Assembly (NCBI GenBank): GCA_965207735.1 | Contig: OZ242296.1 | Coordinates: 1,824,001 to 1,888,000, forward strand | Length of the DNA: 64,000 nucleotides | DNA from: Candidatus Versatilivorator sp. | GTDB taxonomy: Bacteria > Acidobacteriota > Terriglobia > Versatilivoradales > Versatilivoraceae | Direction: 5' to 3' | Part shown: in pieces, positions 14,633-59,463 of the stretch | How positions within the stretch are numbered: the stretch's first letter is position 1 | How the letters are laid out: each line of letters begins with the position of its first letter | Translations under genes and position numbers: made by a program | The notes under the pieces: model-generated | Databases searched by the model: none | The model's input: only the letters and a program-made list of their open reading frames with translations | Told to the model about the DNA's origin: nothing

Positions 14633-15477
14633 TCAACCGAGCCCGACAGCGGGCTGAGGCCGGAAAGGGGGACTGTCCCCGCTCCAGTCCAGCGGCAGCA
14701 GGGATTGTCGCCACAGTCCCGGCTCCAGCAATGGCCCTGCTGAAGGCGGCTTTCTTCCGAGCTGGTACCGGTCGCACAACTGGCGGATGAGATCGGAAAT
14801 CCGCTCGCGATAGATCTTCAGCCTGCCCTGTGGGAGCCCATAGAGGTCCCGGTATACCGGCACCAGCTCCGGAAATCGCTCCCGCAGAAAGGGCACCCAT
14901 ACTCGCTCGATGGAGGAGGTGACAAACAGGACCCTGGCAGCCAGATAACCCGCGCCCCGGCGCTTGACGCTGCGCACCAGTGCCTCCAGGTCGGCGGTGC
15001 CGTCGGTAATCCGAGGAAGCACCGGCATGACCAGCACCCCTGTGTTCAAGCCCGCCTGCGACAACGCCTTCAAGGCCAGCAGCCTCCGCCGGGGCGTGGC
15101 CGCCCGAGGTTCCAGGAGCCTGGCCAATTCGGAGGAGAGGGTGGTAAGAGTGATGTTGAGATGCACCTCGTTGCGGGAGGCGATCTCCCGCCACAACTTC
15201 AGGTCCCGCAGGACCAGGTCGGACTTGGTGGTCAGCGAAATGCGGAGTCCCCGCCATTCGGCCAGCCTCTCCAGCATCGCCCGTGTCAGCTTGAAGCGCC
15301 TCTCAGCCGGCTGATAGGGATCGGTGGCGGTGCCGATGGCAATGGGCCGGTCTCGCAGCCTGGCCGAAAGCAGGTCCTTTTCCAGGACGGCATCCCCCTT
15401 CCGCTTGGCGAAGATCTCGGACTCGAATTGGCCTGCATCCTCCCGGCCCATGTATTCGTGGGTATAGCGGGCATAAC
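14633..15477 (-). pseudogene. Radical SAM protein (Rv2578c/SplB-like), 3' part, interrupted by the ICE
   Basis: YARYTHEY...IAIGTATDPYQPAE...TTKS..RD...LEPRA..RRL...MPVLPRITD; lacks CxxxCxxC, which is found at 59262-59463. Confidence 0.9.
15464..15477 (+). repeat. att site, integrase-proximal (core GGGCATAAC 15469-15477)
   Basis: ATAGCGGGCATAAC matches ATAGTGGGCATAAC at 59257-59270 at 13/14 positions, exactly at the gene breakpoint. Confidence 0.9.
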
Positions 15478-15596
15478 TGTCCCTTATAGATCTTATACCG
15501 TCCATAGCCGTCCATAAACATCTTCTAAGACATGTTATTTCAAATATATATGTAGACTAACTGTCTAACGGCGTCCAATAGTACTGCTTGACATCC

Positions 15597-15628
15597 GAGG
15601 GCAACTCGGGGCAATATTGGGGGCAACT
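15597..15628 (+). promoter_or_regulatory. Putative integrase arm-type sites (3 x GGGCAA[CT/TA])
   Basis: GAGGGCAACT, CGGGGCAATA, GGGGGCAACT in tandem; the same motif occurs twice near the other att site. Confidence 0.65.
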
Positions 15629-15653
15629 CAGGAGACACTACAGGCAACCCTAT

Positions 15654-16889
15654 ATGCCTCTCACCGATATTGCGATACGTCATGCCCGCCCCGGCACCAA
15701 ACCCAGGAAGATATTCGATGGGAGTGGACTGTATCTGGAAGTGGCCCCCAGTGGCGGTAGGTGGTGGCGGCTGAAGTACCGCTTCGCAGGCAAGGACAAA
15801 CGGATCTCCCTGGGCGTCTATCCCGACGTGTCGCTGAAAGAAGCCCGGCGGCGGCGTGATGAGGCCCGCCAGCTGTTGGCCAAGGCGATAGATCCGAGCG
15901 AACACCGTAAAACACAAAAAGCAGAGAGAGACCAACGCTCAAAGAATAGTTTCGAAGCCGTGGCCCGGGAATGGTTTGGCAAGTACTCCACAAACTGGGT
16001 CCCCGATCATGCGGGTCTGGTCCTCAAACGACTGGAGCGTGACATCTTCCCTTGGATCGGAGGCAAGCCAATTGCTGAGATCAATGCTCCTCAACTGCTG
16101 ATTGTCGTCCGCCGGATCGAACAACGTGGAGCCCTGGAAACTGCCCATCGGGCGCTTCGAAACTGTGGTCAGGTCTTTCGCTACGCCGTGGCTATCGGAT
16201 GTGCCGACCGCGACCCATCTGGAGATCTGCGAGACGCGTTGCCACCGGTCAAGAGAACACACTTTGCCGCCCTCACTAATCCGAAGCGGGTTGGCCCCTT
16301 GCTGAGAGTGCTGGACGCCTATGAAGGGTCACTCATCGTTCGTTGCGCTTTGCGGTTTGCACCACTGGTTTTCGTCCGGCCCGGCGAGCTCCGCCGAGCC
16401 GAATGGTCAGATATCGACCTGGAAGCGGCCGAATGGCGTTTCACCATCACCAAGACCAATACGCCGCATCTAGTTCCCTTATCCCGGCAAGCGGTAGAGA
16501 TTCTGCGCGAACTCTACCCGCTGACCGGACACGGGCGCTTTGTCTTCCCGAGTTCCCGCGCTCCGAGAGGGGACCGTCCCATGGGTACCAATACCTTTCT
16601 GTCCACCCTACGGTTCATGGGTATCGGAAAGGAGGAGATGACAGGCCACGGCTTCCGGGCCATGGCGAGAACCCTCCTGGATGAAGTGTTGGGCTATCGA
16701 CCCGACTATATCGAACACCAACTGGCCCATGTGGTGCGTGATCCTCTCGGTCGGGCCTACAATCGCACGGCTCACCTGCCGCAGAGGCGAGAGATGATGC
16801 AAGCGTGGGCCGACTATCTGGACCGGCTCAAATCCGGTGAGGTTGACACGCCGATCAGGACAACTGCCAGTCAAGGAACGTCACAGTAG
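15654..16889 (+). CDS. Tyrosine integrase, P4/IntA family with arm-binding domain
   Basis: MPLTDIAIR..KP..DGSGLYL..W.LKYR..SLGVYP; catalytic RPGE, HGFR, LAH and AY residues. Confidence 0.96.
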   Translation: MPLTDIAIRHARPGTKPRKIFDGSGLYLEVAPSGGRWWRLKYRFAGKDKRISLGVYPDVSLKEARRRRDEARQLLAKAIDPSEHRKTQKAERDQRSKNSFEAVAREWFGKYSTNWVPDHAGLVLKRLERDIFPWIGGKPIAEINAPQLLIVVRRIEQRGALETAHRALRNCGQVFRYAVAIGCADRDPSGDLRDALPPVKRTHFAALTNPKRVGPLLRVLDAYEGSLIVRCALRFAPLVFVRPGELRRAEWSDIDLEAAEWRFTITKTNTPHLVPLSRQAVEILRELYPLTGHGRFVFPSSRAPRGDRPMGTNTFLSTLRFMGIGKEEMTGHGFRAMARTLLDEVLGYRPDYIEHQLAHVVRDPLGRAYNRTAHLPQRREMMQAWADYLDRLKSGEVDTPIRTTASQGTSQ

Positions 16890-17388
16890 AGAGCAAGACC
16901 TGACAAGTCCCGAAAGAACCAAAGGCATCACCAAGTCCCCACTCAGCAAGCATCGGTTTGAGTCCAACGACGCGATGAGCAAGAGAGAACAGTTAGCACA
17001 GTCACGTGAACTCATCACCGCATAGTTCTTCCCCGAATAATTCTCGACGAGGGGCCATCCCACCAGTCTGCTAATCTCCCCATGCAATCCTCTTAGTCAC
17101 GCCTTAGTCACGCCAACGACTTCACATTCGCCTTCCAAGCTAAAACCGCCGGTGCAGCCTTCCGGGGGCCGAAACATCTCCGGGTCAACTGGTCGGACAC
17201 AATGCGCTTCCGTCCACCGACGCTTTGTCCATGGTGTTCATGCGGGAACAGAATCCGCAAACCAACCAGTTGACCTGCCTGGCCGTGCCGCCTGCAATCG
17301 TTCAGCGATGTTCCGGCATTCGATAATATACCGTTAAGTCTTCCAGGATCACACCGATACGGAACCAATCGTTCAAGAGGAGGGACTG

Positions 17389-19398
17389 ATGCCATCTCAT
17401 TACTCCCCCCGAAGTTTCTTCAGGCAGGCCCCAAGAGACCTGCTCGCCCGGTACTTCGAGAGCCGCGGTTTGTCCTTCAAGCCGGACTTGGCGACCGTCG
17501 CGGATACGCCTGGGGATCCGTTGTATGCGGCCTGGCTCCAATTTCCCGAGGAGCAGCGCAACGAGATGGAGCTCGATTTTCGGGAGATCTTCAAGATGAG
17601 TTGCCGAAAGGGCGTTCAGGCTATTCTCGATGCCACGCAATCGCGCCGGGTCGACACTCCCGAAAGCGCGGGTGCTTTCATCGAGTCCCTGTCGAGGATG
17701 CCGGATCACTTCCACCGCGCAATGGCGACCTGGCTGGACCACAGGGGATGCTGGAGAGAAGCCCACCGGTTTTATGGAGGTGATGCGCCCGGTTGGTGGC
17801 GAAAGCGCAAGAACATGGGACACCGGCCGGCGGCAACCGATCCGGCCAGCCTCCGGCGCCTTGCCGACCTGATCGGCGCCTGGTTTCACCGCAGCGAAGG
17901 ACGGGGCAGCCGCTGCGTGGTGGAATCCTTCCACCGGGATGGGCTGGACTTCTATTTCGCCTACCCTGAGGACTACTCCCGGTTGAAGATGGAGTGGACG
18001 GATGGGGAGTTCAGCCCGAGACGGAGCCGGCCGGTATTCGAGGTGGTCTTCGCCTACTCGCAACGGGAGGGTTCGGTGGACCTGAGCTTCCCGGGTCCCT
18101 GCCGCGCGGTAGAACCGCTGCAGCAGATGTTCGCCAAGGCGATTCTCGGACTGGGCCGCCTGGCATCCGATCCTGCCGGCGCGCCGGTCTACGACCTCGC
18201 TCCCCTGCTCAGAAAAGACTTCGATTTCGTGTACGGTTCCGGCAGCGGGGTCGAGTCGGTAATGGTGAGGAAGCTGGGATTGGCCTCGCGGGTGCTCAAG
18301 GATTTCCGGTTCACACTGGAGCCTGGCGAGGCTTGCCCCCCCGATGACATCCACGACTATCTGCAAATGGCCGGCGCATTCGATCCGTCTCTCCTCTACA
18401 GAGTTACCCAGGCAGAGCTGGTGGCTATTCTGTCCGCTGACGGAAAAACTCCGCGCGGCAGAGTTCCGATCCACCTGGCCGTTCCGGCTTCCTGTTCGCT
18501 CGGCTACGGCGATCGGGAACTGAAGCTGCGGGAAATGGTAAGGGCCTCGGGTCTTGAGCCGGAAGGGCTCGAACGGGATCGGGACAGGAGTCCGGAAACC
18601 GTGCTGATCGATCTGGGCGCCCGTTTGTGCATCTCCCCGAACCGCAATCTCAGGATCGATTCACGGGAACTGGCCCGCTGCGCCGGCAAGGCGGTCAAGG
18701 CCCTCAAAGCCCAGAATATCCTGCGAAAGGCCCGCCCCGCCCGCAGCGCGGTGTGTCCGGGCTGCGAGCGGCATTGCCGGATGCCCGTGCACAGAGAGTC
18801 AGGGCCAGCGCGTCAAGCGACCGGGATGAAGGGTCCGGCAGCTCCTTTCATCCTGTGCGACAAGCGCGGCGACATCAACCGGGTGCCCGTAGCGGCTGAC
18901 CGGTTGACCCACTGGCAGACCGATGCGGCCAGCCTGATCCGATTCATTGCCGGCGCCCTTTCGCTGAGCGGGAGCGGCCAACGGCCACAGGAGAGGAAAG
19001 AGTTGGAAGCCGGCATGGTTTGCGGGAGGAGCCGCGGCCGGGTGGTAGGCCTGAGGATGGAGGACGAGCTGAAGCTTGTGGCGGGTTCAAGCCGATTGCC
19101 ATTTTCCAAGGTCCTGCGTTTTCGCGAGGACCGCTACGGACTGGAGGAAATGCCCGTCCGCCGCTGGCTGGACGAGGCCACCGGGGACGAGGCTCCCTAC
19201 AGCGCGAGCCGGGTCAGGTACGAGTCAAGAAAGCTCGACACCCGCAAGAAGGACCTGGCTCTTCAGAAGGCCTACCGGTCGCTGAAGCGGGAGAGGCCGG
19301 GCAGGCCTGACATCTGGTACGCGCGGCAGATCGCCAGGAGCGGGCTCGGCGGCGGACTCAGCCCGGAAACCATCCGCAAGCGGATGAAAAAAAAGTGA
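17389..19398 (+). CDS. Hypothetical protein (669 aa) with CPGCERHC Cys cluster and C-terminal HTH-like segment
   Basis: Long ORF with good RBS (GAGGAGG); ends ...IWYARQIARSGLGGGLSPETIRKRM; sits directly upstream of alpA. Confidence 0.75.
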   Translation: MPSHYSPRSFFRQAPRDLLARYFESRGLSFKPDLATVADTPGDPLYAAWLQFPEEQRNEMELDFREIFKMSCRKGVQAILDATQSRRVDTPESAGAFIESLSRMPDHFHRAMATWLDHRGCWREAHRFYGGDAPGWWRKRKNMGHRPAATDPASLRRLADLIGAWFHRSEGRGSRCVVESFHRDGLDFYFAYPEDYSRLKMEWTDGEFSPRRSRPVFEVVFAYSQREGSVDLSFPGPCRAVEPLQQMFAKAILGLGRLASDPAGAPVYDLAPLLRKDFDFVYGSGSGVESVMVRKLGLASRVLKDFRFTLEPGEACPPDDIHDYLQMAGAFDPSLLYRVTQAELVAILSADGKTPRGRVPIHLAVPASCSLGYGDRELKLREMVRASGLEPEGLERDRDRSPETVLIDLGARLCISPNRNLRIDSRELARCAGKAVKALKAQNILRKARPARSAVCPGCERHCRMPVHRESGPARQATGMKGPAAPFILCDKRGDINRVPVAADRLTHWQTDAASLIRFIAGALSLSGSGQRPQERKELEAGMVCGRSRGRVVGLRMEDELKLVAGSSRLPFSKVLRFREDRYGLEEMPVRRWLDEATGDEAPYSASRVRYESRKLDTRKKDLALQKAYRSLKRERPGRPDIWYARQIARSGLGGGLSPETIRKRMKKK

Positions 19399-19615: not shown

Positions 19616-19858
19616 ATGAACGAGATCGAATCCGGCAGGGCATTGACACCGAGAATCCTGAGGCTCCCGCTGGTCCGCGAACGCACCGGACTGTCCCGCA
19701 GCAGCATCTATATGCGCATTTCCGAGGGGCGTTTCCCCAAGCCCATCTCCCTGGGGGAGCGGGCCGTCGGCTGGCTGGAGTCCGAGATCACCGAGTGGGT
19801 GAACCGGAGGATCGAGGCCAGCCGGCAGGCAGGGCCTCGAGAGGACGGTTCCAGATGA
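19616..19858 (+). CDS. alpA: AlpA-family regulator / recombination directionality factor
   Basis: ILRLPLVRERTGLSRSSIY...GRFPKPISLGERAVGWLESEI. Confidence 0.95.
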   Translation: MNEIESGRALTPRILRLPLVRERTGLSRSSIYMRISEGRFPKPISLGERAVGWLESEITEWVNRRIEASRQAGPREDGSR

Positions 19859-22152
19859 CGGGCGCATACTTGAGCCTCTACTCACAGGACCGTCCGGAAC
19901 TGGGCCGGGGGAGCGGCGCGGAGCGCATGTGCTCCTGTCCCTCGCCCGCTCACGAGGACAGAAAGCCGAGCTGCTCGGTCCAGGTGGAATCGGGAAAGTG
20001 GTTCTGCCACGGCTGCGGGGAAGGCGGCGGCGTGGTGAAGTGGCTGAGGCTCGCCCGGGGCCTGTCGGGACCGGAAGCCCTGGAAACAGCCCGGCGGCTC
20101 GGATTGGTACCGGAACACGGAGACATCATAAACAGTTCGCGGGTGAACGGAAGACTTCAGTCCGCCCCGAACGGACAGCGGCCTTACCGCCAGCCGTGTT
20201 CCGTCGAAAACGCTCCTCCGTCCGCCCTTCCGTTCCGATGCGCCGCCTGCTACCACTACCGCGCCCCGGACGGGACCGAGTACGCCCGGGTTTACCGCTA
20301 CCCCGAGAACCGGCCTGGCCGTAAGGCCGACCCTTATTCCCTGCGCAATAGGGGAGAGCACGCGGGTACCTGGACCCACCGGGCTCCGCAGAACCGCTGG
20401 CCTTACCGCGTAGAAACCCTGACTGACGCAACCCCGGTGGTGATCGTCGAAGGCGAGAAGTGCGCCGATGCCTTGGCCGGACTGGCGGAGGGATATGGAG
20501 TGCTGAGCTGGCTGGGCGGCAGCGGCGCTGTCCTGCGCACGAACTGGGACGCCCTTTCGGGGAGGGAAGTGATCCTGTGGCCGGACGCCGACGATCCGGG
20601 GCGGGAGGCGATGGCGAGGCTGGCCGGCGAGCTGGACAGGATCGGGGCGGCCGAGGTGCTGATGATCCGCCCGGAAGAGGAGCGGACCGCCGGCTGGGAC
20701 GTGGCCGACGCCATCGCGATGGAGGGTTGGGGATGGGAGGAAACCCGGCGGTATCTCCTTCAGGCCGAACCGGTCGATCAGGAAGAGTGCCGCCGGCTCA
20801 GACGGATCGCGGAGAAGGTCCTGGTGACGGCGGAGGGAATCGATCCGGATGGGATCGACTGGATCTGGGAGCCCTACCTGCCCGCCGGGGCCGTGACCCT
20901 GATGGCCGGGGCGCCCGGTTGCGGAAAGAGCTTCCTGAGCATTGCTCTGGCAGCGGAGCTGTCCCGGGGCCTGACCCCGTTTCACCGGAAGCGGACCGGG
21001 AAGGTCCCGACGGCAATCCTTTCCCTCGAGGACGATCCGGCCCGAACGATCGTTCCCCGGCTGAAGGCCTGCGGGGCCGACCTGGGTGAGATCTTGATCT
21101 TCGACTGGCGTCATCCGGAGGCGGATTCCCTGGATACGCTGTCGATGAGGGAGGGAACGGAGGGAGAGCTGCTGCGGGTCTTGCGGGAGGGAGTCAAGCT
21201 GCACGGTCTCCGGTTGGTGATCATCGACACCCTGACGGCGTTCACTCCCGCCAGGATGGACGGGCATGAGGCCGTCGCTGTCCGTCAGATGATGAAACCC
21301 ATGGCCCGGTTCGCCTCCGATTGCGGCGTGGCGGTCCTGGTGATCTGCCACGCCCGCAAGAGAAGCAGCCATGATTCGACGCACGGGGTCCAGGCGACTG
21401 TTTTGGGAAGCGTGGACTACGTGGCCGCGTGCCGGTCGGCGCTGCTGGTGCAGAAAGACCCGAAGGCGGACGAGGGGACGGCGGGCATCATGACCCATGC
21501 CAAGTGCAATTTCGGACCGTTGGGTTCCTCGCTCTCCTTCTCGATCGGCACCGACGGCTGGAAGTGGGGGGAAGAGCGGCAGGAGTCGGCCGATGAAATC
21601 GAGGAAGCGCTGCTGGCCAGGAGGGAACACAGGAGGATGAAGGAGCGGGAGGAGAGGATCAAGGCCGGGAAGGCCGAGACGAGAGCACACATTGAAGAGC
21701 GGATCCGAACCTACATGGAGCAGTACCCGGGGGAAGAGTTTTCGACCCGGGAACTGAGAGAGAACATCGAGGTCAAAAACGACACCATTGCGGGTGTGTT
21801 GCACAAGATGATGGAGGAAAAGCAGTTGATCCGCCGCAGGAAGGGCAAACAGAAGGTGTTGTGGAGCCTTGACGGTAACGGCAAGCGGCAGCGAACAAAA
21901 GACGAAGGCAATCCCTCCAAAACCGGTCCCCGTTTCTCAACCGGTCCCCAAAAATCAGAAGAAAACGGCAAGCGGTTAGTTGCTGGGAATTCAATGACTT
22001 GCCCTGTGGAAAACAAACCGGTCCCCTTGTCTCCCCCTATATACGCGCGCGCGGGGACCGGTTTGGGGGACCGGTTTTCCACAGGCGGAGAAAAAGAGCG
22101 GAAAAAAGGAAGCGGCCAGGGTCCCCCGAAACCCAAGGGGAGATCGCCATGA
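19855..22152 (+). CDS. Primase-helicase: CHC2 zinc finger + TOPRIM + AAA_25/RepA-like helicase
   Basis: CP..HED.KPS..W.CHGC; VEGEK, WPDADDPG; Walker A GAPGCGKS, Walker B VIIDT, ICH..K, KCN; ATGA overlap with alpA. Confidence 0.9.
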   Translation: MTGAYLSLYSQDRPELGRGSGAERMCSCPSPAHEDRKPSCSVQVESGKWFCHGCGEGGGVVKWLRLARGLSGPEALETARRLGLVPEHGDIINSSRVNGRLQSAPNGQRPYRQPCSVENAPPSALPFRCAACYHYRAPDGTEYARVYRYPENRPGRKADPYSLRNRGEHAGTWTHRAPQNRWPYRVETLTDATPVVIVEGEKCADALAGLAEGYGVLSWLGGSGAVLRTNWDALSGREVILWPDADDPGREAMARLAGELDRIGAAEVLMIRPEEERTAGWDVADAIAMEGWGWEETRRYLLQAEPVDQEECRRLRRIAEKVLVTAEGIDPDGIDWIWEPYLPAGAVTLMAGAPGCGKSFLSIALAAELSRGLTPFHRKRTGKVPTAILSLEDDPARTIVPRLKACGADLGEILIFDWRHPEADSLDTLSMREGTEGELLRVLREGVKLHGLRLVIIDTLTAFTPARMDGHEAVAVRQMMKPMARFASDCGVAVLVICHARKRSSHDSTHGVQATVLGSVDYVAACRSALLVQKDPKADEGTAGIMTHAKCNFGPLGSSLSFSIGTDGWKWGEERQESADEIEEALLARREHRRMKEREERIKAGKAETRAHIEERIRTYMEQYPGEEFSTRELRENIEVKNDTIAGVLHKMMEEKQLIRRRKGKQKVLWSLDGNGKRQRTKDEGNPSKTGPRFSTGPQKSEENGKRLVAGNSMTCPVENKPVPLSPPIYARAGTGLGDRFSTGGEKERKKGSGQGPPKPKGRSP
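21921..22083. repeat. Iteron-like origin candidate: 5 x AACCGGTCCCC (3 direct, 2 inverted) plus two DnaA-box-like 9-mers
   Basis: Copies at 21921, 21939, 22016 (+) and 22053, 22066 (-); TGTGGAAAA at 22005-22013 and TTTTCCACA at 22075-22083. Confidence 0.75.
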
Positions 22153-22228: not shown

Positions 22229-22516
22229 ATGAAGTCATCTTTGTTTTCCAGCGTAGCCGTCTTTTGCCTGGGGCTCCTGCTGTTATGCCCGGGGGTGGTC
22301 TGGGCGCAGGGGACCAGTCCCTGGACAGACGCCGTGGGAGTCCTCGAAGCCGCTTTCACCGGCCCCATCGCCCGTGGCCTGTCGCTGATCGCCATTGTCG
22401 TTGGCGGCCTGATGTTCGCCTTCGGAGAAGGCGGATCGAAGAAGGCGCTGGCCGGTATCGTCTTCGGTTTGGGCATGGCCATGGGAGCGGCCAACTTCCT
22501 GGCCTGGCTGTTCTAG
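22229..22516 (+). CDS. virB2: TrbC/VirB2 conjugative pilin
   Basis: Signal peptide; SPW...FTGPIARGLSLIAIVVGGLMFAFGEGGSKK; first gene of the T4SS operon. Confidence 0.88.
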   Translation: MKSSLFSSVAVFCLGLLLLCPGVVWAQGTSPWTDAVGVLEAAFTGPIARGLSLIAIVVGGLMFAFGEGGSKKALAGIVFGLGMAMGAANFLAWLF

Positions 22517-22524
22517 GGTTTCCC

Positions 22525-22821
22525 ATGGACGGCCCGAAAATCTGGAGGGGGCATCCGACACTCAGTGCCCCCTTGAAAATGATGGGTGTCGAACGCCGCT
22601 GGTTCCTGCTGTCCGCAACGGTCGCCCTGGCGCTTTGGAACGCGATCAACTCGCTCCTTATAGGTGGCGTGATCTTCGGCGTCCTCTACACCGCCGGCCT
22701 GCTGGCCTGGAGGAAGGATCCGGCCATGCTTTCGATCCTGAAGGTCTCGGCTAGCTTCCGCGCCCGATACGACCCGGGCAAGTGGAGCAGCTTGCCCTGG
22801 GTTGTGAGAATCCGAGAATGA
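22525..22821 (+). CDS. virB3: VirB3-like membrane protein
   Basis: L..PL.MMGVERR.F, two TM helices, KDP..L, YDP; lies between virB2 and virB4. Confidence 0.8.
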   Translation: MDGPKIWRGHPTLSAPLKMMGVERRWFLLSATVALALWNAINSLLIGGVIFGVLYTAGLLAWRKDPAMLSILKVSASFRARYDPGKWSSLPWVVRIRE

Positions 22822-27586: not shown

Positions 27587-27630
27587 TTCTCGATGCTGAA
27601 CACCAATTCAAATCCTGAAAGGAGGAAGCC

Positions 27631-28524: not shown

Positions 28525-28547
28525 CGCTCAGCGCCAGGGAGTAGCCG

Positions 28548-29519: not shown

Positions 29520-29522
29520 ACG

Positions 29523-31141: not shown

Positions 31142-31346
31142 ATGGTGCACACTCTTGACAACCACATTGCTTCTCTCTCAGAGGGCGGAGCACTCGCCGT
31201 TGTGGTCAGAGACTTTCACGAATCGCCGCATCAGACGCGGAACGACAAGCATTTCGCGTGTCTGATGCGACAAAGCGAAGCGAGGCTATGCCGCGCGTGT
31301 GCCCCCCTCGCTTGGCGCGGCGGCGCGCCGCACGAGAGGGGTGCTG

Positions 31347-31457: not shown

Positions 31458-31483
31458 AGTGATCCCTTGCGGGAAGGCTGCTA

Positions 31484-38574: not shown

Positions 38575-38575
38575 C

Positions 38576-39887: not shown

Positions 39888-39893
39888 CTCGGC

Positions 39894-40405: not shown

Positions 40406-40406
40406 T

Positions 40407-44725: not shown

Positions 44726-44850
44726 GAGGAAGGAACAAAGAAACGCTCCTATCTGGGCGTCGGGCTGGCGATATTATCGCCAGCGGGGTTATGCAGCGAT
44801 GGCTAAGGTCAGCGCTGCGAATTTTCAACGACGCATCCACTATTAACTCG

Positions 44851-44925
44851 CATTGCAGGTTCGTCGAAGTCGCTCACCCGCTCGATGCCATGACCAAGGA
44901 ATCTGTCCAGAAGCAACCGTTCCGG
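44851..44925 (+). pseudogene. Relic 5' end of a DUF1156 methyltransferase gene
   Basis: HCRFVEVAHPLDAMTKESVQKQPFR aligns by eye with [26 protein letters not shown] at the start of the intact gene at 48990. Confidence 0.65.
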
Positions 44926-44977
44926 TCCTGGCTCGACAGGCTTCCAGCAAGCGGCCTGTACCAACATGAGGTGCCCC

Positions 44978-47680: not shown

Positions 47681-47691
47681 GGAGCGGTGCG

Positions 47692-48993: not shown

Positions 48994-51992
48994 CCCACCT
49001 GAAGAAACTCATTGAAGTCGCCTTGCCGCTTGACGCGATCAACACGGCCTCGGCCAGGGAGAAGTCCATCCGCCACGGCCACCCAAGCACACTGCACCTT
49101 TGGTGGGCGCGTCGACCGCTGGCGGCAGCCCGGGCGGTGATTTTCGCGCAGATGGTGGATGATCCGTCCGAATATGTCGACGTGCTGCTCTCGGACCCCA
49201 AGCAGAAAAGGGCCGCGGAGCGGGAATTGAAGAAACGCCTCGCGGCGCACGCGGCGAAGCGCTCACTGGCCCGCGACGACGCGATCGCCGAAGCTCGGCC
49301 GACGCTGGAAGAGGTCATCGCCGAGCAAGAGCGCGACCGGCTATTCGCGATTATCGAAGACTTGGTTCTTTGGGAGAACACCACGAACGAAGAGGTGCTC
49401 GAACGGGCGCGGCGAGAGATCTGGCAGAGTTGGCGGCGGGCGTGCGCGAAGAATGCGGCCCATCCGAGAGCCACGGATATTTTCGATCGGCAAAAGCTCC
49501 CGGCTTTTCACGATCCGTTTGCGGGCGGAGGAGCGCTCCCGCTGGAGGCGCAACGGCTGGGGCTGGAAGCCCATGCCAGCGACCTCAACCCGGTGGCGGT
49601 GCTGATCAACAAGGCCATGATCGAAATTCCACCGAAATTCGCTGGCGAGGCACCTGTGAATCCGGAGTCTCGCCAGGAAAAGAGACTGATCGAGCGCGAC
49701 TGGACTGGGGCGCAGGGACTGGCCGAAGATGTGCGCTATTACGGGCAGTGGATGCGCGACGAGGCGGAGAACCGCATTGGGCACCTATATCCCAAGGTCG
49801 AGGTCACCGAGAAGATGGTCGCAGAGCGGCCTGACCTGGAACGCTACAAGGGCCGCAAGCTGACGGTGATTGCGTGGCTGTGGGCGCGGACGGTGAAAAG
49901 CCCCAACCCCGCCTTTGCCGATGTCGAGGTGCCGCTGGCGTCCACCTTTATGCTCTCGACCAAAAAGGGCAAAGAAGCGTACGTCGAGCCGGTGATCGAG
50001 GACAAAGAGTACCAGTTCACGGTTAAGGTAGGCGAGCCGCCGGACGTGGCGACGACGAAGACGGGGACGAAGCTGTCCCGCGGCGCTAACTTCCGGTGCC
50101 TGATGTCCGGGACGCCAATTGCGCCCGACTACATCAAAGCCGAAGGCATGGCCGGACGCATGGATGCACGGCTGATGGCGATCGTGGCCGAAGGTGATCG
50201 TGGTCGGGTCTATCTCAATCCGACTACGCAGATGGAAGAAACGGTGCAGACGAAAGAGACAGTATGGAAACCAGAGCAGCCGCTTCCCGATAATCCCAGG
50301 TGGTTTTCCCCTCCAGATTATGGAATGCCAACCTTCGGCGACCTCTTCACTAGCCGCCAACTCGTCGCCCTGACGACCTTCTCGGACCTAGTGGCGGAGG
50401 TGCGTGCGCGGGTGGAGCGTGACGCCATCGTTGCTGGCCTTTCCGACGACAGCACGCCTCTGCGCCATGGCGGCACCGGCGCCACGGCATATGCAGAGGC
50501 TGTTTCAGTGTATTTGGCGTTTGCAGTGGATTACGCGGCTAATTATTGGTCGGTAATTGCGACGCCAGCGGATGGTTTTATCCGGGGCACGTTCGCACGA
50601 CAAGCCCTACCGATGACCTGGGATTTTGCGGAGGCTCCTCCGTTCGGTAATACCAGTGGCAACTGGCTTGGAGGAATCGAATGGATTTCGAAAGTGCTTG
50701 ATTTGTTGCCCTGCATGACTCTTGGCCACGAAGCAACGGGCCTTCAGGCCGATGCAGCACGCCAGACATACAGCTTGAATTCAATTATTTCCACAGACCC
50801 ACCCTATTACGACAACATTGGTTACGCGGACCTGTCCGATTTTTTTTACGTCTGGTTGCGTCGGGTGCTGAAGCCAGTATTCCCAGAGTTGTTTGCGACC
50901 GTGGCTGTGCCGAAGGCGGAGGAACTGGTAGCCAGCCCTTACCGCCACGGCAGCAAGACGCAAGCAGAAACCTTCTTCCTGCATGGCATGACCCAAGCGA
51001 TGCGCCGCCTGTCCGAACAGGCCCATCCCGGATTTCCAGTCACCATCTACTACGCCTTCAAGCAGGCCGAGACGAAAGGGGGCGAGGGCACTGCCAGCAC
51101 CGGTTGGGAGACCTTCCTCGACGCCGTGATCGCGGCCGGTTTCTCGGTCACCGGCACTTGGCCGATGCGCACTGAGCGCGGCGGGCGCATGATTGACATC
51201 GGGACCAACGCCCTCGCCTCCAGCATCGTCCTGGTCTGCCGCCAGCGCCCTGCGGATGCCCCGATGGCCACTCGCCGGGAGTTCGTTGCGGCCCTCAAAT
51301 CTGCATTGCCAGTGGCCCTGACTCACCTGCAGCGCGCCAACATCGCACCGGTTGATCTGGCGCAGGCGGCCATCGGCCCGGGAATGGCGGTCTATACCCG
51401 CTACGCCAAGGTGCTCGACGCCACGGGCAAGGCTCTCCCGGTGCGCGATGCACTGGCGCTCATCAACCACACCCTCGACGAGGCGTTGGCCGAACAGGAG
51501 GGCGACTTCGACGCCGACAGCCGCTGGGCGCTCGCCTGGTTCGAGCAGTTTGGCTTCGACAAAGGCGAATACGGCATCGCCGAAATGCTCTCCAAGGCCA
51601 AGAACACCAGCGTCGCGGGCATGGTGGATGCGGGTATTCTGGCCTCAAAAGGCGGGACGGTCCGGCTGCTGAGGCCCGAGGAACTACCTCCGGATTGGGA
51701 CCCAACGACCGACCCGAGGCTGACCGGTTGGGAGATGGTGCATCATCTCGTACGAGCACTGGAGGCCAGCGGCGAGAACGCCGCGGCCGAACTTGCTGCC
51801 CCACTCGGCGCCAAGGCCGAGGCGGCTCGCGAGTTGTGCTACCGTCTGTACACGTTATGCGACCGCAAGAAACGCACGGCGGCGGCACTCTCCTACAACA
51901 GCCTGGTGCAGAGTTGGCCCGAGATCAGCCGCTTGGCCCAAGAAGTCGGCCGCCACGGTGCCAAGCAGTCTGGACTTTTCGGGGAGGATTAG
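48990..51992 (+). CDS. DUF1156-containing amino (likely N6-adenine) DNA methyltransferase
   Basis: [27 protein letters not shown] (SAM binding), TDPPYYDN (catalytic), TWPMRTE, NALASSI; GTGA overlap with the upstream gene. Confidence 0.93.
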
Positions 51993-51994
51993 CC

Positions 51995-53185
51995 ATGCAT
52001 GTCGAATCCATAAAGCTAAAAAACTTCAAGAGTTTCAAAGAGGTGACGATGCTGGATATTCCGCACTATTGCGTAATCGTCGGCGCCAACGGAACGGGAA
52101 AAAGTACTCTTTTCGATGTTTTTGGATTCCTCAAAGATTGCCTGACCTACAATGTCCGGCAGTCCCTGCAAGTTCGTGGGGGCTATGCCGAAGTCGTAAG
52201 TAGAGGGGATACCGGCGGGGCCCCAATCGAATTGGAGATTCAGTTTCGTATGGAAATATCTGGGGTCAACCGTCTTGTGACCTATGTTGTTCATATTGGC
52301 CAGGAAAAAAACAGACCGGTGGTGGCCCGGGAAATACTCCGCTACAAACGCGGCCGTTATGGATCACCGTTTCATTTTCTGGACTTCGCGCAGGGCAACG
52401 GCTATGCCATAACGAACGAAGAGGATTTCGACAAACCAGATGAAGAACTGACCCGCGAATATCAGTCGGTCGCCCGGGATGTGCTGGCCATAAAGGGACT
52501 GGGGCAGTTTGAACGCTTCAAGGCGGCCAGCGTCTTTCGACAGTTAATTGAAAACTGGCACGTCTCCGATTTCCACATCAACCTTGCGCGCGGCAGTAAG
52601 GACGCCGCAGGCCCGAACGAGCATCTCTCCGTTACAGGAGACAACCTCCAGTTGGTGGCACAAAATATCCTCGAAAGCTCACCCGACACCTTCGAGAGAA
52701 TTGTCGAGGCAACGAAAAGGCGCATCCCCGGCATAGATGAAATCGTACCCGTCTCTACACCGGACGGCAGGCTCTTGCTGAGATTCAGGGACGGCGCTTT
52801 TGCCAATCCGTTCATCGACAAATATGTATCCGACGGCACCATCAAGATGTTCGCCTATCTGATTCTTCTCTACGACCCCGAACCCCATCCCCTGCTGTGT
52901 ATCGAGGAACCGGAGAATCAGTTGTATCCTGACCTGCTGAGCGAATTAGCGGAAGAATTCCGGTCCTATGCCGACCAGGGAGGTCAGGTTTTTGTCTCGA
53001 CTCATTCGCCAGACTTTCTGAATGCCGTCGAACTCGAAGAAGTGTTCTGGCTGGTCAAGAGCGGCGGCTATACCGAAATACGGCGCGCTCGGGATGACGA
53101 GCAGATCGCCGCCTACATGGCCGATGGCGACAAAATGGGGTATTTGTGGCGACAGGGATTTTTTGAGGGGGCCGATCCTCAATGA
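51995..53185 (+). CDS. AAA_21/ABC-type ATPase
   Basis: NFKSF, GANGTGKS, SDGT signature, IEEPEN, STHS. Confidence 0.92.
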   Translation: MHVESIKLKNFKSFKEVTMLDIPHYCVIVGANGTGKSTLFDVFGFLKDCLTYNVRQSLQVRGGYAEVVSRGDTGGAPIELEIQFRMEISGVNRLVTYVVHIGQEKNRPVVAREILRYKRGRYGSPFHFLDFAQGNGYAITNEEDFDKPDEELTREYQSVARDVLAIKGLGQFERFKAASVFRQLIENWHVSDFHINLARGSKDAAGPNEHLSVTGDNLQLVAQNILESSPDTFERIVEATKRRIPGIDEIVPVSTPDGRLLLRFRDGAFANPFIDKYVSDGTIKMFAYLILLYDPEPHPLLCIEEPENQLYPDLLSELAEEFRSYADQGGQVFVSTHSPDFLNAVELEEVFWLVKSGGYTEIRRARDDEQIAAYMADGDKMGYLWRQGFFEGADPQ

Positions 53186-53751
53186 ATCAATTGGTCTTTT
53201 TTCTTGAGGAGCCCTCAGCGCGAGAAATGTTAAAGAACCTTCTCCCCCGAATCCTGCCCGATTACGTAACGGTTCGCTACGTGGTGTTTGAGGGCAAACA
53301 GGATCTGGAGAATCAGCTTGGACGAAAACTGCGTCGCTGGCGCGTGCCCGATACCCGCTTTGTTGTCATGCGGGACAAGGATCAAGCGGACTGTCTCACA
53401 GTCAAGTGCCGTTTGGTCCGGATTTGTCGGGATGCTGGAAAGCCGGACGTGCTGGTCCGAGTTCTTTGCCATGAATTGGAAAGCTGGTACCTCGGAGATT
53501 TGAACGCTGTTGAGCAAGGACTTCAAATAGCTGGACTGGGCCGGAAACAGGAACAATCAAGATACCGAAGCCCTGACCGGATTGCCAATCCCGTGCAGGA
53601 ATTACGAAGGCTCACACGAGACAGGTATCAAAAAATCGACGGCTCCCGGGCCGTCGGCCCCCACCTATCGCTGGATGGAAATCGATCCCATAGTTTCACG
53701 GTGTTCGTGTCTGGCCTCCGGCGTCTTGTTCAGAGCTGTACCGGTGGTTGA
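53182..53751 (+). CDS. DUF4276-family (TOPRIM-like) protein
   Basis: FFLEEPS, FEGK.DL, MRDKD, ELESWYLGD, YQK, NRSHSF; ATGA overlap with the ATPase. Confidence 0.82.
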   Translation: MNQLVFFLEEPSAREMLKNLLPRILPDYVTVRYVVFEGKQDLENQLGRKLRRWRVPDTRFVVMRDKDQADCLTVKCRLVRICRDAGKPDVLVRVLCHELESWYLGDLNAVEQGLQIAGLGRKQEQSRYRSPDRIANPVQELRRLTRDRYQKIDGSRAVGPHLSLDGNRSHSFTVFVSGLRRLVQSCTGG

Positions 53752-53791
53752 AACATTCATGCAATTCGGAGCGAAATAGGATAGGAGGGAT

Positions 53792-56700
53792 ATGGCCACG
53801 ACCAATCACGAGCGGGTCGGCAAGGCACTGGATTTGCTCAAAACGGGCCTGGGCCCGTTTGTCGACCGTGAAGTCCAAGGCGCCCTGGAGTCGCGAAAAT
53901 TGGCCGCCCGCCGATTGCGCGACTACGGGGAAGATCGCGCGTTGGGGAGCAAGCCGATCCTCGAGTGGGACGTGGCCGGGCTGCTGAAGCTGATGTGGGA
54001 TACCTGGCACGAAGTCTTCCGTGAGATTCTGGGGCGGGCGGAGCGGAGTCTGGTCAGCGAATTGCGCGACCACCGCAACAAGTGGGCACACCAGGAGAGT
54101 TTTTCCAGCGATGACGCCTATCGCGCTCTGGATTCGGTGGGGCGACTCCTTGCCGCGGTATCCGCGCCGCAGTCCGAAGAGCTCGAGAAGCGCAAGCTGG
54201 AACTGCTGCGGGTACGCTTCGACGAACAGACCCGCGGAGAACGGCGCAAGCAGTCGGGAACGGCGATTGAAAGCGCCGCCGCGGCCAGACTGACGCCCTG
54301 GCGGGAAATCGTCACCCCTCACAGGGACGTCGCGAGCGGGGGATACCAGCAAGCCGAGTTCGCCGCCGATCTCTGGCAGGTCCATCTGGGTGAAGGCACC
54401 GATGAGTATCGAGACCCCGTCGAGTTCTTCCGGCGCACCTATCTGACGGAAAGCCTGAAGGGGCTGTTGGTTGGGGCAATACGCCGCCTCGCGGGCAGAG
54501 GAGGCGACCCCGTCGTTCAGCTCCAGACGAACTTCGGCGGTGGCAAGACCCACTCCATGCTGGCCCTGTATCACCTGTTCTCCGGGACAGCCTCCGCGGA
54601 ACTGGATGGGATCGACCGCGCTTTGCTGGAGGCGGAGGCCACGAAACTTGGGGAGGCGCGCCGCGTCGTGCTGGTTGGAAACAAGATCTCTCCAGGGAAC
54701 CCGGTCGCCAAGCCGGATGGCACCCTCGTCCGAACGCTCTGGGGCGAGCTGGCGTGGCAACTGGGCGGCAAGAGGGCGTTCGCGCGCATCGCGGCCGACG
54801 ACGAAAAGGCAACGAGTCCAGGCGATGCACTGCGGGAACTCTTCAATGAATATGGTCCCTGCCTGATCCTCATCGATGAGTGGGTTGCCTACGCCCGCCA
54901 GCTGCATGACCAGAGCGACCTGCCCGCCGGAGGCTTCGAGACCCAGTTCAGTTTTGCCCAGGTGCTCACGGAATCGGCCAAACTCGCCAACAACTGCCTG
55001 CTCGTGATCAGCTTGCCGGCCTCGGACACGACCGGGTCCCCCCACACCCAGGCGGACGATGTTGAGGTCGGTGGGCAACGCGGGCGGGAGGCACTCGATC
55101 GTTTGCGGAACGTCGTCGGGCGCATCGAATCGTCCTGGCGTCCGGCCAGTGCCGAGGAAAGCTTCGAGATTGTACGGCGCCGCCTTTTCGAGCCGTTCAC
55201 AGATCCTGTCCAATTCAGGGACAGGGATGTGGTCGCCCGCGCATTTGCCGAGTTCTATCGGACGCAGCATCAAGAGTTCCCGCCTGAGTGTCGAGACGCA
55301 GACTACGAGAAGCGGATCAAGGCGGCCTATCCCATACACCCCGAGATCTTCGATCGCCTGTACACGGATTGGTCGACGCTGGTGAAATTCCAGCGCACGC
55401 GTGGCGTGTTGCGGTTGATGGCGGCCGTGATTCACAGCCTGTGGGAGAAAGACGACAGGAATCCGCTGATTCTGCCGGCGAACATAGCGATCGACGATAC
55501 ACGCGTACAGTTCGAGCTGACCCGGTATCTCCCCGACAACTGGGTGCCGGTGATCGAGAAAGACGTGGACGGTCCCAGCTCACTGCCGCTACGGATTGAC
55601 GGCGCGGTTCCGAACCTCGGAAAGTTCCACGCTTCCAGGCGCGTCGCGCGAGCGATTTATCTCGGATCCGCTCCCACCGCCGCTGCGGCGCATCGGGGTC
55701 TTGAGGACCGCCGCGTCAAACTCGGCTGTGTCATGCCGGGGGAGTCTCCGGCTGTCTTCGGCGACGCGCTGCGGCGTTTGGCCGGCGCGGCAACCTACCT
55801 CTACCAGGATGGTCCTCGTTACTGGTACTCCACACAGCCAACCGTCACGAAGCTGGCGGAGGATCGCGCCGAGCAGCTGAAGCGGAACCCCGACAAGGTG
55901 GTGCAGGAGCTCGGTTCGCGACTCCGATCGGATCTCCGCAACACGGGCGACTTCAATCGAGTGCATCCCCTCCCGCAATCCGGGCAGGATGTTCCGGATG
56001 ACCTCGATGCACGACTCGTGGTGCTCGGAAGCGACACGCCCTACAGCAAAGAGAAGGGAAATCCCGCAGAGACCGCGGCGCAAGCCATCCTGGAATCGAG
56101 AGGTAGCGCACCAAGGATTTGTCGTAACACGCTCGTGTTTCTGGCCCCGGACAAGACGAGGCTGCAGGATCTCGATGAGGCGCTCCGGCGGCACTTGGCA
56201 TGGGAATCGATACTCGGTGAACGGGAACAGCTCGATCTTTCGCCTCACCAGGTCAAGCAGGCCGAAAACCAAAAGGAAGCGGCGTCCAGCGCGGTAACGG
56301 CCCGGCTCCCGGAGACGTTCCAGTGGCTCCTGGTTCCGGTTCAGGCCCGTCCCGAAGCTTCGATGGAGTGGCAGGCCATGAGGCTGTCGGGCCAGCACTC
56401 GCTCGCATCCAGAGCGAGCAAGAAACTGAAAGGCGATGAGCTGCTGGTGACCGGCTTTGCCGCCACTCGGCTTCGGATGGAGCTTGATCGCGTGCCTCTC
56501 TGGCGCGGCGACCATGTACCGATCAAACAAATCGTCGAGGATTTTGCGCGGTATCCCTATCTGCCCCGGGTCAGCGACCCGACGGTCCTGCTAAACGCAA
56601 TCAGCGATGGCATTGCCCTCCTTACCTGGGAACAGGATGCGTATGCGTTCGCAGAAAGCTTTGACGATGAGGCAAAACGATATCGCGGTTTACGCGGTGG

Positions 56701-57133
56701 AAAAGTTGTTTCATTGCCGGATGCGGATGCTCCCGGATTGCTCGTCAAGTCGGATATCGCGCGTCAACAGCTTGATGCCGAGAGTGCACAGCCACCGGGC
56801 GGCGGAGAAGTTGCTGGCGCAGGGACGGGTGGAGAAAGCTCGGTCCCAGGGGGAGGACCGGGTCCCGGGGAGGATCCGCCGGGCGCCCCGTCGTCGCACC
56901 CGAAGCGGTTTCATGGGACTGCTATGCTTGATTCCGCTCGGGTAGGCCGCGACGCGAGCCGGATTGCGGACGAGGTGATCGCGCATCTTTCCAGCCTGGT
57001 GGGAGCCAAGGTCACAGTGACCCTAGAAGTAGAGGCCGAGATCCCGGCCGGAGCCCCGGATCACGTTGTTCGTACGGTCACGGAGAACAGCCGGACACTG
57101 AAGTTCACAAGCCAGGGCTTTGAAAAAGAATAG
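53792..57133 (+). CDS. DUF499 AAA+ ATPase with N-terminal Swt1-like HEPN domain
   Basis: ELRDHRNKWAH (RxxxxH), L.PWRE..TPH.DV, EFAADL, FGGGKTH, LIDE, YPIHP, FQRTRGVLRL; RBS AGGAGG. Confidence 0.92.
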   Translation: MATTNHERVGKALDLLKTGLGPFVDREVQGALESRKLAARRLRDYGEDRALGSKPILEWDVAGLLKLMWDTWHEVFREILGRAERSLVSELRDHRNKWAHQESFSSDDAYRALDSVGRLLAAVSAPQSEELEKRKLELLRVRFDEQTRGERRKQSGTAIESAAAARLTPWREIVTPHRDVASGGYQQAEFAADLWQVHLGEGTDEYRDPVEFFRRTYLTESLKGLLVGAIRRLAGRGGDPVVQLQTNFGGGKTHSMLALYHLFSGTASAELDGIDRALLEAEATKLGEARRVVLVGNKISPGNPVAKPDGTLVRTLWGELAWQLGGKRAFARIAADDEKATSPGDALRELFNEYGPCLILIDEWVAYARQLHDQSDLPAGGFETQFSFAQVLTESAKLANNCLLVISLPASDTTGSPHTQADDVEVGGQRGREALDRLRNVVGRIESSWRPASAEESFEIVRRRLFEPFTDPVQFRDRDVVARAFAEFYRTQHQEFPPECRDADYEKRIKAAYPIHPEIFDRLYTDWSTLVKFQRTRGVLRLMAAVIHSLWEKDDRNPLILPANIAIDDTRVQFELTRYLPDNWVPVIEKDVDGPSSLPLRIDGAVPNLGKFHASRRVARAIYLGSAPTAAAAHRGLEDRRVKLGCVMPGESPAVFGDALRRLAGAATYLYQDGPRYWYSTQPTVTKLAEDRAEQLKRNPDKVVQELGSRLRSDLRNTGDFNRVHPLPQSGQDVPDDLDARLVVLGSDTPYSKEKGNPAETAAQAILESRGSAPRICRNTLVFLAPDKTRLQDLDEALRRHLAWESILGEREQLDLSPHQVKQAENQKEAASSAVTARLPETFQWLLVPVQARPEASMEWQAMRLSGQHSLASRASKKLKGDELLVTGFAATRLRMELDRVPLWRGDHVPIKQIVEDFARYPYLPRVSDPTVLLNAISDGIALLTWEQDAYAFAESFDDEAKRYRGLRGGKVVSLPDADAPGLLVKSDIARQQLDAESAQPPGGGEVAGAGTGGESSVPGGGPGPGEDPPGAPSSHPKRFHGTAMLDSARVGRDASRIADEVIAHLSSLVGAKVTVTLEVEAEIPAGAPDHVVRTVTENSRTLKFTSQGFEKE

Positions 57134-57941: not shown

Positions 57942-59039
57942 GTGATGGAACTACATCGGCGACTCGATGTTGAAGTTTCCGCTGTGGATAACCAGTTCGA
58001 TCTAGTACCGGTCAGTTCCGCAGGCAACCGAGCCATGTCAGACTACCTTGGTCGCTCTGTGGAGTCCCACGTCCCTGTTCGGATGACAAAAGAACAGTAT
58101 CGGCACTTCTGCGCTCGACGCTACGTATTGTCCATTGGTATACGCCGAGAATTCTTAGGGCAGCGAAGGCATGCCGCGGCGGATTTCTCCGAGAGCCTGT
58201 CGTATGATCTATTGAACCGTGTGGACGTTGATCCGACAATACTTCATGTTCGGGACCATGACTTCGTGGTTGCTTGCGGCCGCTATGGGCCATCTTTACA
58301 GGAAGAACAGGAAGAATTGTACAAGGTTACAAAACCCAGTTATACACCCTTGGCTTCCTTAGCCATAAGCCTTGGCACCTTGGATTACTACCGCGCCACG
58401 GCTGACAACAATGAAGGCTCTTTCACTGCTTCTTCCAACAACTGGTTATTCCGCACGCTTGATGGCGAGGTGGTCGCTGATTCAAGCAGTCTTGAACGGT
58501 TGAACATTAGCATGAACCCCTCTTGGATATATTGTGCGACAATCGTGTCCCGCCGAGACGGAATGAGTCCAGAACAAGTCGAATGGTTCAAAGAAAGTAG
58601 GCGTGCGACTCCGATCGTAGCACCTGTCAACCACTTCGCTATGATGCTCGGACTTAGCTTTGGCGCTTGGTCTAAGCCGCGCATTCGGCAGGTGTATGAG
58701 TGGATTGAGAGCGTTGATACACTGAGGTACATTGACAATGGAATCCTGGTCATTCACGGAGAGGTTCGATACATGGACCCGAGGGAACGTGATCGTTACC
58801 TTGAGGGGCTATATCGTGAAAATCGCCAGTTGTGGAGGTACGAATCCGTTTTCACAAAGAACGTTGAGTTTGCGCCGGAGCGCGAGTACAGGTTTGGCAT
58901 ATGGGGGTGGGGTCCGCCCTTAAAGAACCATATTGTGCTTCCTGTAACGAACCAGTTGTTAGAGTGCTACGGGCCTAGTGTAACGGTCGCGTGCTTGAAG
59001 CTGTCTGGCTCAAATCACCGCGATCACTTAAACCGTTAG
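57942..59039 (+). CDS. Hypothetical protein, lower GC (DUF2971-like motifs)
   Basis: 365-aa ORF; SLGTLDYYR, WIYC, FTKN..F..EREYRF; start uncertain (57942 or 58035). Confidence 0.65.
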   Translation: MMELHRRLDVEVSAVDNQFDLVPVSSAGNRAMSDYLGRSVESHVPVRMTKEQYRHFCARRYVLSIGIRREFLGQRRHAAADFSESLSYDLLNRVDVDPTILHVRDHDFVVACGRYGPSLQEEQEELYKVTKPSYTPLASLAISLGTLDYYRATADNNEGSFTASSNNWLFRTLDGEVVADSSSLERLNISMNPSWIYCATIVSRRDGMSPEQVEWFKESRRATPIVAPVNHFAMMLGLSFGAWSKPRIRQVYEWIESVDTLRYIDNGILVIHGEVRYMDPRERDRYLEGLYRENRQLWRYESVFTKNVEFAPEREYRFGIWGWGPPLKNHIVLPVTNQLLECYGPSVTVACLKLSGSNHRDHLNR

Positions 59040-59177
59040 AATATCATCGGGATTCATCTATAAGCTCAAGGGTGACCTCAAGTTGCTTGTGAAAAAGGCG
59101 CGAGAGTACGCTGTTGTTTACAAGTGTTTCATGTGAAATATATCAGATGACAGTATTCGGCAATGGCATTCAAAAAC

Positions 59178-59200
59178 TAGGGGCAACTTTAGGGGCAACT
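59178..59200 (+). promoter_or_regulatory. Putative integrase arm-type sites (2 x TAGGGGCAACT)
   Basis: Perfect 11-bp direct repeats at 59178 and 59190, about 60 bp inside the att core, same motif as 15597-15628. Confidence 0.7.
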
Positions 59201-59256
59201 ATATAAATCTAGAGAGTATAAATTATTTATAATCAGTAATTTATGAATTTATACTG

Positions 59257-59270
59257 ATAGTGGGCATAAC
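59257..59270 (+). repeat. att site, integrase-distal (core GGGCATAAC 59262-59270)
   Basis: Direct repeat of 15464-15477; preceded by a very AT-rich stretch. Confidence 0.9.
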
Positions 59271-59463
59271 AATACTTGCAGCCGAACTCGCAGCCCCGAT
59301 AAGGGTTGATGGTCCAGTAGAACGGCATTTCCGGGTTCGAGCAGCGGTTCAGCACCGATTTGACCTCGATGGACAAATAGCGGGCCCGGCGCTTTTGCAA
59401 CAATGGAGTGCTCTCCGCAGCCAGTCGGGCAATGCCTACCAGTTTGTCGGATTCCTTGGTCAT
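59262..59463 (-). pseudogene. Radical SAM protein, 5' part (67 codons including CxxxCxxC)
   Basis: MTKES...KSVLNR...MPFYWTINPYRGCEFGCKYCYA; reading runs into ICE sequence and stops at 59233. Confidence 0.92.

Follow-up and report, generated by a model that had tools for sequence, protein, structure and literature searches.

A 43.8-kb element, apparently an integrative and conjugative element (ICE), splits a radical S-adenosylmethionine (SAM) gene in the stretch of DNA analysed here, which comprises 64,000 nucleotides of Candidatus Versatilivorator sp. (Acidobacteriota; assembly GCA_965207735.1, contig OZ242296.1, positions 1,824,001 to 1,888,000 of the forward strand) and is hereafter called the window. 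We consider the best explanation to be that the element's integrase has been re-targeted and now uses a dedicated site in this gene that is conserved, single-copy and dispensable, the gene being knocked out while the element is resident (probability of about 0.57). Comparison with related sequences indicates that this P4-type integrase was likely re-targeted from tRNA T-loops to the radical SAM gene.

The split gene and its junctions

The two parts of the gene are bounded by copies of a 9-bp direct repeat, the core, that lie 43,793 bp apart on the minus strand (Table 1). Deleting one copy and the interval in silico produced a radical SAM frame of 1038 bp and 345 codons with a single terminal stop. 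This recomputation agreed with a preliminary description of the stretch, which had reported an uninterrupted frame of 345 amino acids (aa) across the core, exact restoration of the gene by excision of 43,793 bp, and no replacement 5' half from the element. All that the element offers is an in-frame ATG at 15505, from which a 290-codon 3' product without the cysteine motif could be made. The frame of the 5' part continues for nine codons inside the element before reaching a stop, giving a 76-aa N-terminal stub. Both parts matched the same radical SAM models (NF033668 and NF038135) in profile searches. The chance of a given 9-mer at one given place is p ~4e-6.

The core spans codons 65-68, and the element cuts directly 3' of the CxxxCxxC motif (C58, C62, C65), so all three cysteines are kept on the gene's 5' part. 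The gene is therefore split in the region of the iron-sulphur motif, as had been proposed, but just after the motif rather than within it. It is single-copy in the source genome, and its parts are contiguous in 12 of 13 same-genus genomes, with 70-90% identity in the 3' part; the thirteenth (G012) holds the gene only as a fragment at a contig edge. The element itself is present in one of the 14 genus genomes. One uninterrupted orthologue (L091, in genome G002) has an A67T change where the core lies and a frameshift of one base at about codon 288, for which decay, an excision scar and an assembly error are candidate causes. For the gene as for the integrase, the close relatives that carry a name belong to the Acidobacteriota.

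Two runs from one sample, probably the source (X1 and X2), each contained an identical unbroken contig over 14552-16439, which implies that the integrase-side junction is not an assembly artefact. Between 15412 and 15512, contig depth in X1, X2 and X3 was that of the single spanning contig; this interval was uncovered in X6. Neither attB nor attP turned up among contigs of the four runs at the integrase-side junction, although contigs drop rare forms. Just downstream of the gene (14400-14580) lies a high-copy short repeat at which the contigs of all four runs break.

A second lineage has the same junction. In run X3, which belongs to a different study and bears a different organism label, a single contig of 2016 bp spans the passage from gene to integrase and shows 97 differences from the window over 14547-16439. 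There were 45 differences over 14841-15530, with none of the 38 listed falling inside 15453-15530, and at least 36 over 14586-14824. Overall, at least 72 of 831 sites (at least 8.7%) differed in the host 3' part, as opposed to at most 23 of 962 (at most 2.4%) in the element. The first host differences appeared 17 bp outside the core, so the host flank was not carried along with the element. Further out, 10 of about 270 sites differed in the host flank at 14200-14473. Synonymous divergence (dS) was at most 0.09 for the integrase, compared with 0.15 for the core of the gene (codons 69-266) and 0.165 for its whole 3' part. On these sequence differences we favour separate insertions into diverged alleles, and the site has probably served as a genuine landing place more than once.

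A probable change of integrase target

The integrase has the three domains of the P4 type (Arm-DNA-bind_3, Phage_int_M and Phage_integrase) and is accompanied by an AlpA protein. It departs from that type in its attachment sites, with attB outside any tRNA or transfer-messenger RNA (tmRNA) gene and attP lacking a restoring 3' end. To place this departure in context, we collected 177 integrase loci of at least 55% identity, excluding the window: 80 from GTDB, 80 from metagenomes (in each case from among the matches listed) and 17 from the same genome or genus, with a few records counted twice. ARAGORN was used to detect tRNA and tmRNA genes at the first 80 loci. A full tRNA or tmRNA gene stood beside the integrase at 106 of the 177 loci and a T-loop fragment at 42, leaving 21 of other kinds and 8 that were too short. 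The closest relatives with genomic context were same-genus elements at tRNA-Ser, Ala, Arg and Met, with 74-78% aa identity.

Comparison with these relatives suggests that the spacing of the crossover site has been kept and that the target has likely changed. The core of the window element and a conserved TTGAC motif are 118 nt apart, and the T-loop lies 117-119 nt from that motif in 20 of 25 relatives targeting tRNA or tmRNA; the distance in the remaining five ranges over 30-157 nt, mostly through mis-picks of the pattern. By a crude pattern, a tRNA-type 3' end was present on the element side in 136 of the 165 relatives with enough upstream DNA, among them 11 of the 19 relatives without a full tRNA. 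No such end follows the core of the window element, where the best match to a tRNA end of its own genome was 9 of 24 letters. Had the element only recently landed off target, one would expect the tRNA copy to be still in place. The flanks of the 7-bp overlap showed inverted matches at 6 of 9 positions in attP and 5 of 9 in attB, which is weak evidence on its own.

Six related integrases (L077, L078, L016, L047, L187 and L209) sit at non-tRNA places with a tRNA-like 3' end still beside the integrase, and are candidates for off-target or tandem insertions. The source genome contains 45 integrase matches, among them a paralogue (L112) of 77% identity situated at tRNA-Ser(tga) and a match that is broken up near 4,251,877-4,254,441.

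We also placed the integrase in a tree of 41 rows, limited to loci of at least 72% identity that were long enough for translation. The window integrase grouped only with P0122 and P0123 (89-90% aa identity, support 100/100, stem 0.14), and integrases of the genus that differ to a comparable degree already divide by target, with tRNA-Ser, Met, Arg and Ala each having a clade of its own. A class-wide search of 400 genomes returned no integrase closer than 78%, and the junction pattern had no matches in viral contigs.

Several findings weigh against the re-targeting explanation. No radical SAM gene was found beside the integrase at any of the 177 loci, which span 55-79% identity, or at 81 further loci (80 viral and one from the class). 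The expectation that close integrase homologues occupy the same gene thus failed at this distance; no comparison locus with genomic context exceeded 79% integrase identity. The proposal that the cysteine-motif codons are a dedicated target gained a second lineage at the same site and found nothing among the 177 loci, which implies that any clade dedicated to this site is small rather than wide. The occupied site is known from two lineages only, and the X3 comparison covers the integrase-side junction. Element and host also differed only modestly in dS, with P = 0.12 when the integrase is set against the core and P = 0.036 when it is set against the entire 3' part, which leaves room for a single shared ancestral insertion. 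Among the best 120 of 343 short N-terminal homologues of the gene, none ended at the motif with a foreign tail. Finally, identification of the relaxase is weak (Replic_Relax E = 0.002, below the cut-off; Atlas score 0.90 at rank 10).

Under the re-targeting explanation, we infer that recombination by the integrase would take place over a 7-bp overlap, on either side of which attP and attB both have weak inverted repeats. With the element resident, the host would make the 76-aa stub and at most a C-terminal piece without the cluster, and the enzyme would therefore be off. Excision must precede conjugal transfer and would restore the gene only incidentally. A conserved, single-copy, non-essential site is likely of advantage to the element, which probably repays its host with anti-phage cargo. 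Given the predicted repression by LexA, losing the gene would be of little consequence to cells with undamaged DNA.

Regulation, selection and competing explanations

Intact orthologues are radical SAM proteins, yet all four that were scored reached only 233-240 against cut-offs of 430 and 360 for NF038135 (the Rv2578c family) and NF033668 (the PA0069 family). By these scores the gene is related to both families and a member of neither. A PDB search with an intact orthologue (L083) returned no sequence match at E ≤ 0.001, spore photoproduct lyase (SplB) included. The enzyme had been called Rv2578c/SplB-like; its kinship to the Rv2578c family stands, whereas membership fails at both cut-offs. 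A role in DNA repair is putative, drawing on source names and on regulation. The family was matched in 251 of 401 phylum genomes (290 match rows, 150 of them among the matches listed), a tally that includes the unpublished genome G069, used for no other result. Five apparent splits proved on inspection to be short in-frame insertions within one open frame rather than elements. Orthologues in another family (L219-L228; genomes G392, G357, G348, G252 and G301) have short in-frame insertions just after the motif region, at query residues ~75-81. Eight phage matches (28-34% identical over 57-72% of the query) included no radical SAM fragment serving as a replacement.

The prediction of LexA control comes from a direct repeat, GCGAA-N6-GCGAA, upstream of the split gene that recurs upstream in 20 of 26 orthologue loci. 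A genome scan with a matrix built from these loci ranked the lexA promoter second and an imuA-like/imuB operon fourth, the third hit being anonymous, and a 2-Mb shuffle gave no score equal to the top three. The two genomic copies are at G000:C1:2698664 (before lexA) and G000:C1:1454228 (before the imuA-like/imuB operon); no such site was found before recA. Matrix and motif scans detected no strong copy before int or alpA, and we set aside a motif-like hit at window 21891 that lies inside the primase coding sequence and is conserved also in paralogues. Promoter scans found nothing above chance. The repeat is a candidate LexA operator for this Acidobacteriota group. In excerpts of PMC3323433, the LexA motif of Alphaproteobacteria is the direct repeat GTTC-N7-GTTC, which has the same 11-bp period, and a title in its reference list ties Acidobacterium LexA to the alphaproteobacterial group. 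Excerpts of PMC8565304 and PMC3323433 also describe splB-like genes as SOS-regulated in several groups.

Having two split alleles, we asked how selection has acted on the gene. Between them, the ratio of non-synonymous to synonymous divergence (dN/dS) over codons 69-266 was 0.25 (22.5 synonymous, 15.5 non-synonymous; P = 1e-4 against neutral) with no stops, similar to the 0.18-0.27 of intact-versus-intact controls. When changes were polarised with six intact orthologues, this core was constrained on both branches, with 5 non-synonymous to 9 synonymous changes for the window and 6 to 11 for X3 (P = 0.005 and 0.002 against neutral). Insertions that each postdate the divergence of the two alleles would leave just such constraint. 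The last 63 codons gave a different picture, with a dN/dS of 0.94 and 20 of 25 X3-derived changes being non-synonymous, while dN/dS of the window against intact orthologues was 0.21-0.46 over these codons in nine of ten comparisons, the tenth being saturated. The seemingly neutral tail counts against a maintained switch in X3, although this tail is poorly constrained in any case and also holds the G002 frameshift. The window allele departed at 3 of 153 invariant columns, and intact orthologues at 0-9. Relaxed selection, suggested earlier as a way of telling readings apart, is thus absent from the enzyme core and apparent in the C-terminal tail of X3.

These results bear on an SOS-coupled gene switch, in which damage would lift LexA repression and also trigger excision, so that the enzyme would be made only in damaged, excised cells before later re-integration. 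The exact join without replacement sequence agrees with such a switch, as do the retained upstream box shared with lexA and the imuA-like/imuB operon, the intact integrase and AlpA genes, and the constrained, stop-free core in both split alleles. If both lineages inherited one insertion, that constraint would reflect selection on the split gene. The lack of a replacement copy in attP is also the published hallmark of such cases (in excerpts of PMC10111431). However, none of the four runs had an attB or attP contig at the junction, within the above limit of contigs, and int and alpA both lack a strong LexA motif upstream. The element retains transfer genes and cargo, and its presence in one of 14 genus genomes means that relatives regulate the gene without it. 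To these can be added the X3 tail and the related gene that phage Samy disrupts without evident fitness effect, according to parts of PMC12924846. In favour of the excision-controlled switch put forward in the preliminary description stand the exact join and a predicted LexA box, set against a complete, cargo-laden ICE of sporadic occurrence. We regard a switch as unlikely, and on present evidence a tolerated knock-out is more likely.

Alternatively, a tRNA-targeting element may have made one accidental secondary-site insertion that both lineages inherited, leaving a dead and decaying gene. The wider integrase family is overwhelmingly found at tRNA or tmRNA genes (of 177 loci, 106 with a full gene and 42 with a T-loop fragment), and off-target events are common in some clades (as described in part of PMC10111431). 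The dN/dS of 0.94 in the X3 tail points the same way, and the frameshift in the otherwise intact G002 orthologue implies that the gene may be dispensable. An accident is difficult to reconcile with the missing tRNA 3' copy beside the integrase, with two cores identical over 9 bp, or with an enzyme core that is free of stops and under purifying selection on both branches. Departures at invariant columns in the window allele also fall within the range of intact genes. On balance, such an accident seems improbable. Mis-assembly of this metagenome-derived genome is largely refuted and extremely improbable given a junction contig that is unbroken and identical in X1 and X2, diverged in X3, and accompanied by arm repeats and core geometry befitting site-specific integration, even though run contigs were compared at the integrase-side junction only.

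Gene content and relation to known systems

Judging by its genes, the element looks like an intact, working ICE rather than a relic. All 20 of its listed backbone frames are open, a site-specific integrase is combined with att core repeats at both ends, and mating-pair genes (VirB4 and others) accompany a coupling protein. Frames for VirB2, 3, 4, 6, 8, 9, 10 and 11 and the VirD4-like protein are intact, with Pfam domains mostly above cut-off and NCBIfam equivalog scores below. The arm-type repeat unit, GGGCAAC/T, occurs just inside both element ends. Features are collected in Table 1.

Table 1. Features of the split gene and the resident element, in window positions.
Feature	Position	Strand	Basis
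Radical SAM gene, 5' part (codons 1-67, all three CxxxCxxC cysteines)	59262-59463	-	frame join and profile matches
Radical SAM gene, 3' part (codons 68-345, barrel domain PF04055)	14633-15468	-	frame join and profile matches
Predicted LexA (SOS) box, direct repeat GCGAA-N6-GCGAA, between TTGACA hexamer and start codon	59473-59488	-	motif comparison
attL core, 9-bp direct repeat, gene 5' side	59262-59270	-	repeat comparison
attR core, 9-bp direct repeat, at T-loop position of tRNA-targeting relatives	15469-15477	-	repeat and spacing comparison
Arm-type repeats, three, upstream of integrase, common to relatives	15599-15628	+	repeat search
P4-type tyrosine integrase, 411 aa (PF13356, PF22022, PF00589), catalytic motifs present	15654-16889	+	domain search
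669-aa protein of no known family (no Pfam or NCBIfam match)	17389-19398	+	domain search
AlpA-family protein (PF05930), likely excisionase	19616-19858	+	domain search
Primase-helicase (CHC2 zinc finger, AAA_25)	19855-22152	+	domain search
Type IV secretion genes virB2, B3, B4, B9, B10, B5-like (weak), B6, B8	22229-30197	+	profile search
VirD4-like coupling protein and VirB11 ATPase	31484-34518	+	profile search
RepB-type primase and ArdC anti-restriction protein	34562-37581	+	domain search
Candidate relaxase, weak Replic_Relax match below cut-off	37585-38574	+	profile search
HicA-HicB toxin-antitoxin pair	39980-40814	+	domain search
Defence cargo: HmaA (41123), TrlF/Ppl-like PHP-ATPase (44966), Schlafen-AlbA2 protein (47677), HmaB (48972), HEC-01 pair (51995-53751), HmaC (53792)	41123-57133	+	profile search
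Arm-type repeats, two, integrase-distal end	59181-59200	+	repeat search

The Hma system is interspersed with other defence genes, the TrlF/Ppl-like PHP-ATPase and Schlafen-AlbA2 genes lying between hmaA and hmaB, and HEC-01 between hmaB and hmaC. The 669-aa protein belongs to a sequence cluster of only two members, and a 365-aa frame at 57942-59039 had no Pfam or NCBIfam match. Frames of 315 aa and 106 aa of no known family (30126-31611) have dozens of 68-88% look-alikes genome-wide, many near other tyrosine integrase genes, and these are possibly a widespread family of small integrative elements.

Elements of the P4/CP4-57 type at tRNA or tmRNA 3' ends resemble this one in integrase domains, AlpA partner, arm repeats and crossover-site spacing. 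The differences lie in the target, which is protein-coding here, in an attP without a copy of the target end, and in a gene that is broken instead of restored.

Well-known examples of regulated gene integrity are sigK/skin, spsM/SPbeta and comK. Gene-breaking elements without replacement sequence form a known class under this name, in the account given by parts of PMC10111431. As far as sequence can tell, the element has three of their properties: integration would inactivate the target, attP would carry no replacement, and exact excision would restore the split gene. In contrast to them, it is sporadic in its genus and is a full ICE with defence cargo, for which triggered excision and a phenotype are only hypothetical.

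Integration into this type of gene has a precedent, contrary to the suggestion that the target was little described. In parts of PMC12924846, the Streptomyces phage Samy is reported to integrate site-specifically, by means of a serine integrase, into a single-copy Rv2578c-like radical SAM gene, inactivating this Rv2578c-family gene at no evident fitness cost; its authors likewise doubt the SplB label. Both elements thus insert site-specifically and inactivate an Rv2578c-related gene, one being a phage with a serine integrase and the other an ICE with a tyrosine integrase, whose target scores below the Rv2578c family cut-off. Our literature searches found no published tyrosine-integrase ICE in this gene family, and PMC8787282 and preprint 10.64898/2026.09.08.750204 contained nothing that bears on the matter, although TIGER site tables were outside their scope and absence from print is not established.

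The Rv2578c family also includes an intein-containing form (NF038136). Its intein, at profile positions ~77-335, lies at the third cysteine, a few codons from the element core, as placed by hidden Markov model coordinates only. Protein splicing leaves that enzyme active, whereas the element described here must leave the DNA. A more speculative proposal, which we consider doubtful, is that a P4-type integrase lineage moved from tRNA genes to the iron-sulphur motif of a LexA-controlled gene and formed a two-key SOS switch, requiring both LexA cleavage and ICE excision, with the actinobacterial intein at the same few codons. If this were true, the CxxxCxxC codons would be a convergent landing site for unrelated selfish elements.

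We apparently see here an integrase that has already exchanged a tRNA T-loop for a protein-coding target, retaining its arm spacing and losing the replacement sequence. Close tRNA-targeting relatives are at hand, making this a tractable case for specificity change in tyrosine integrases. The few elements known to interrupt radical SAM genes are joined by an ICE with a tyrosine integrase, and a predicted LexA operator is obtained for this group of Acidobacteriota. If excision were damage-inducible and needed for survival, the split gene would represent a new regulated-gene-integrity switch in the SOS response.

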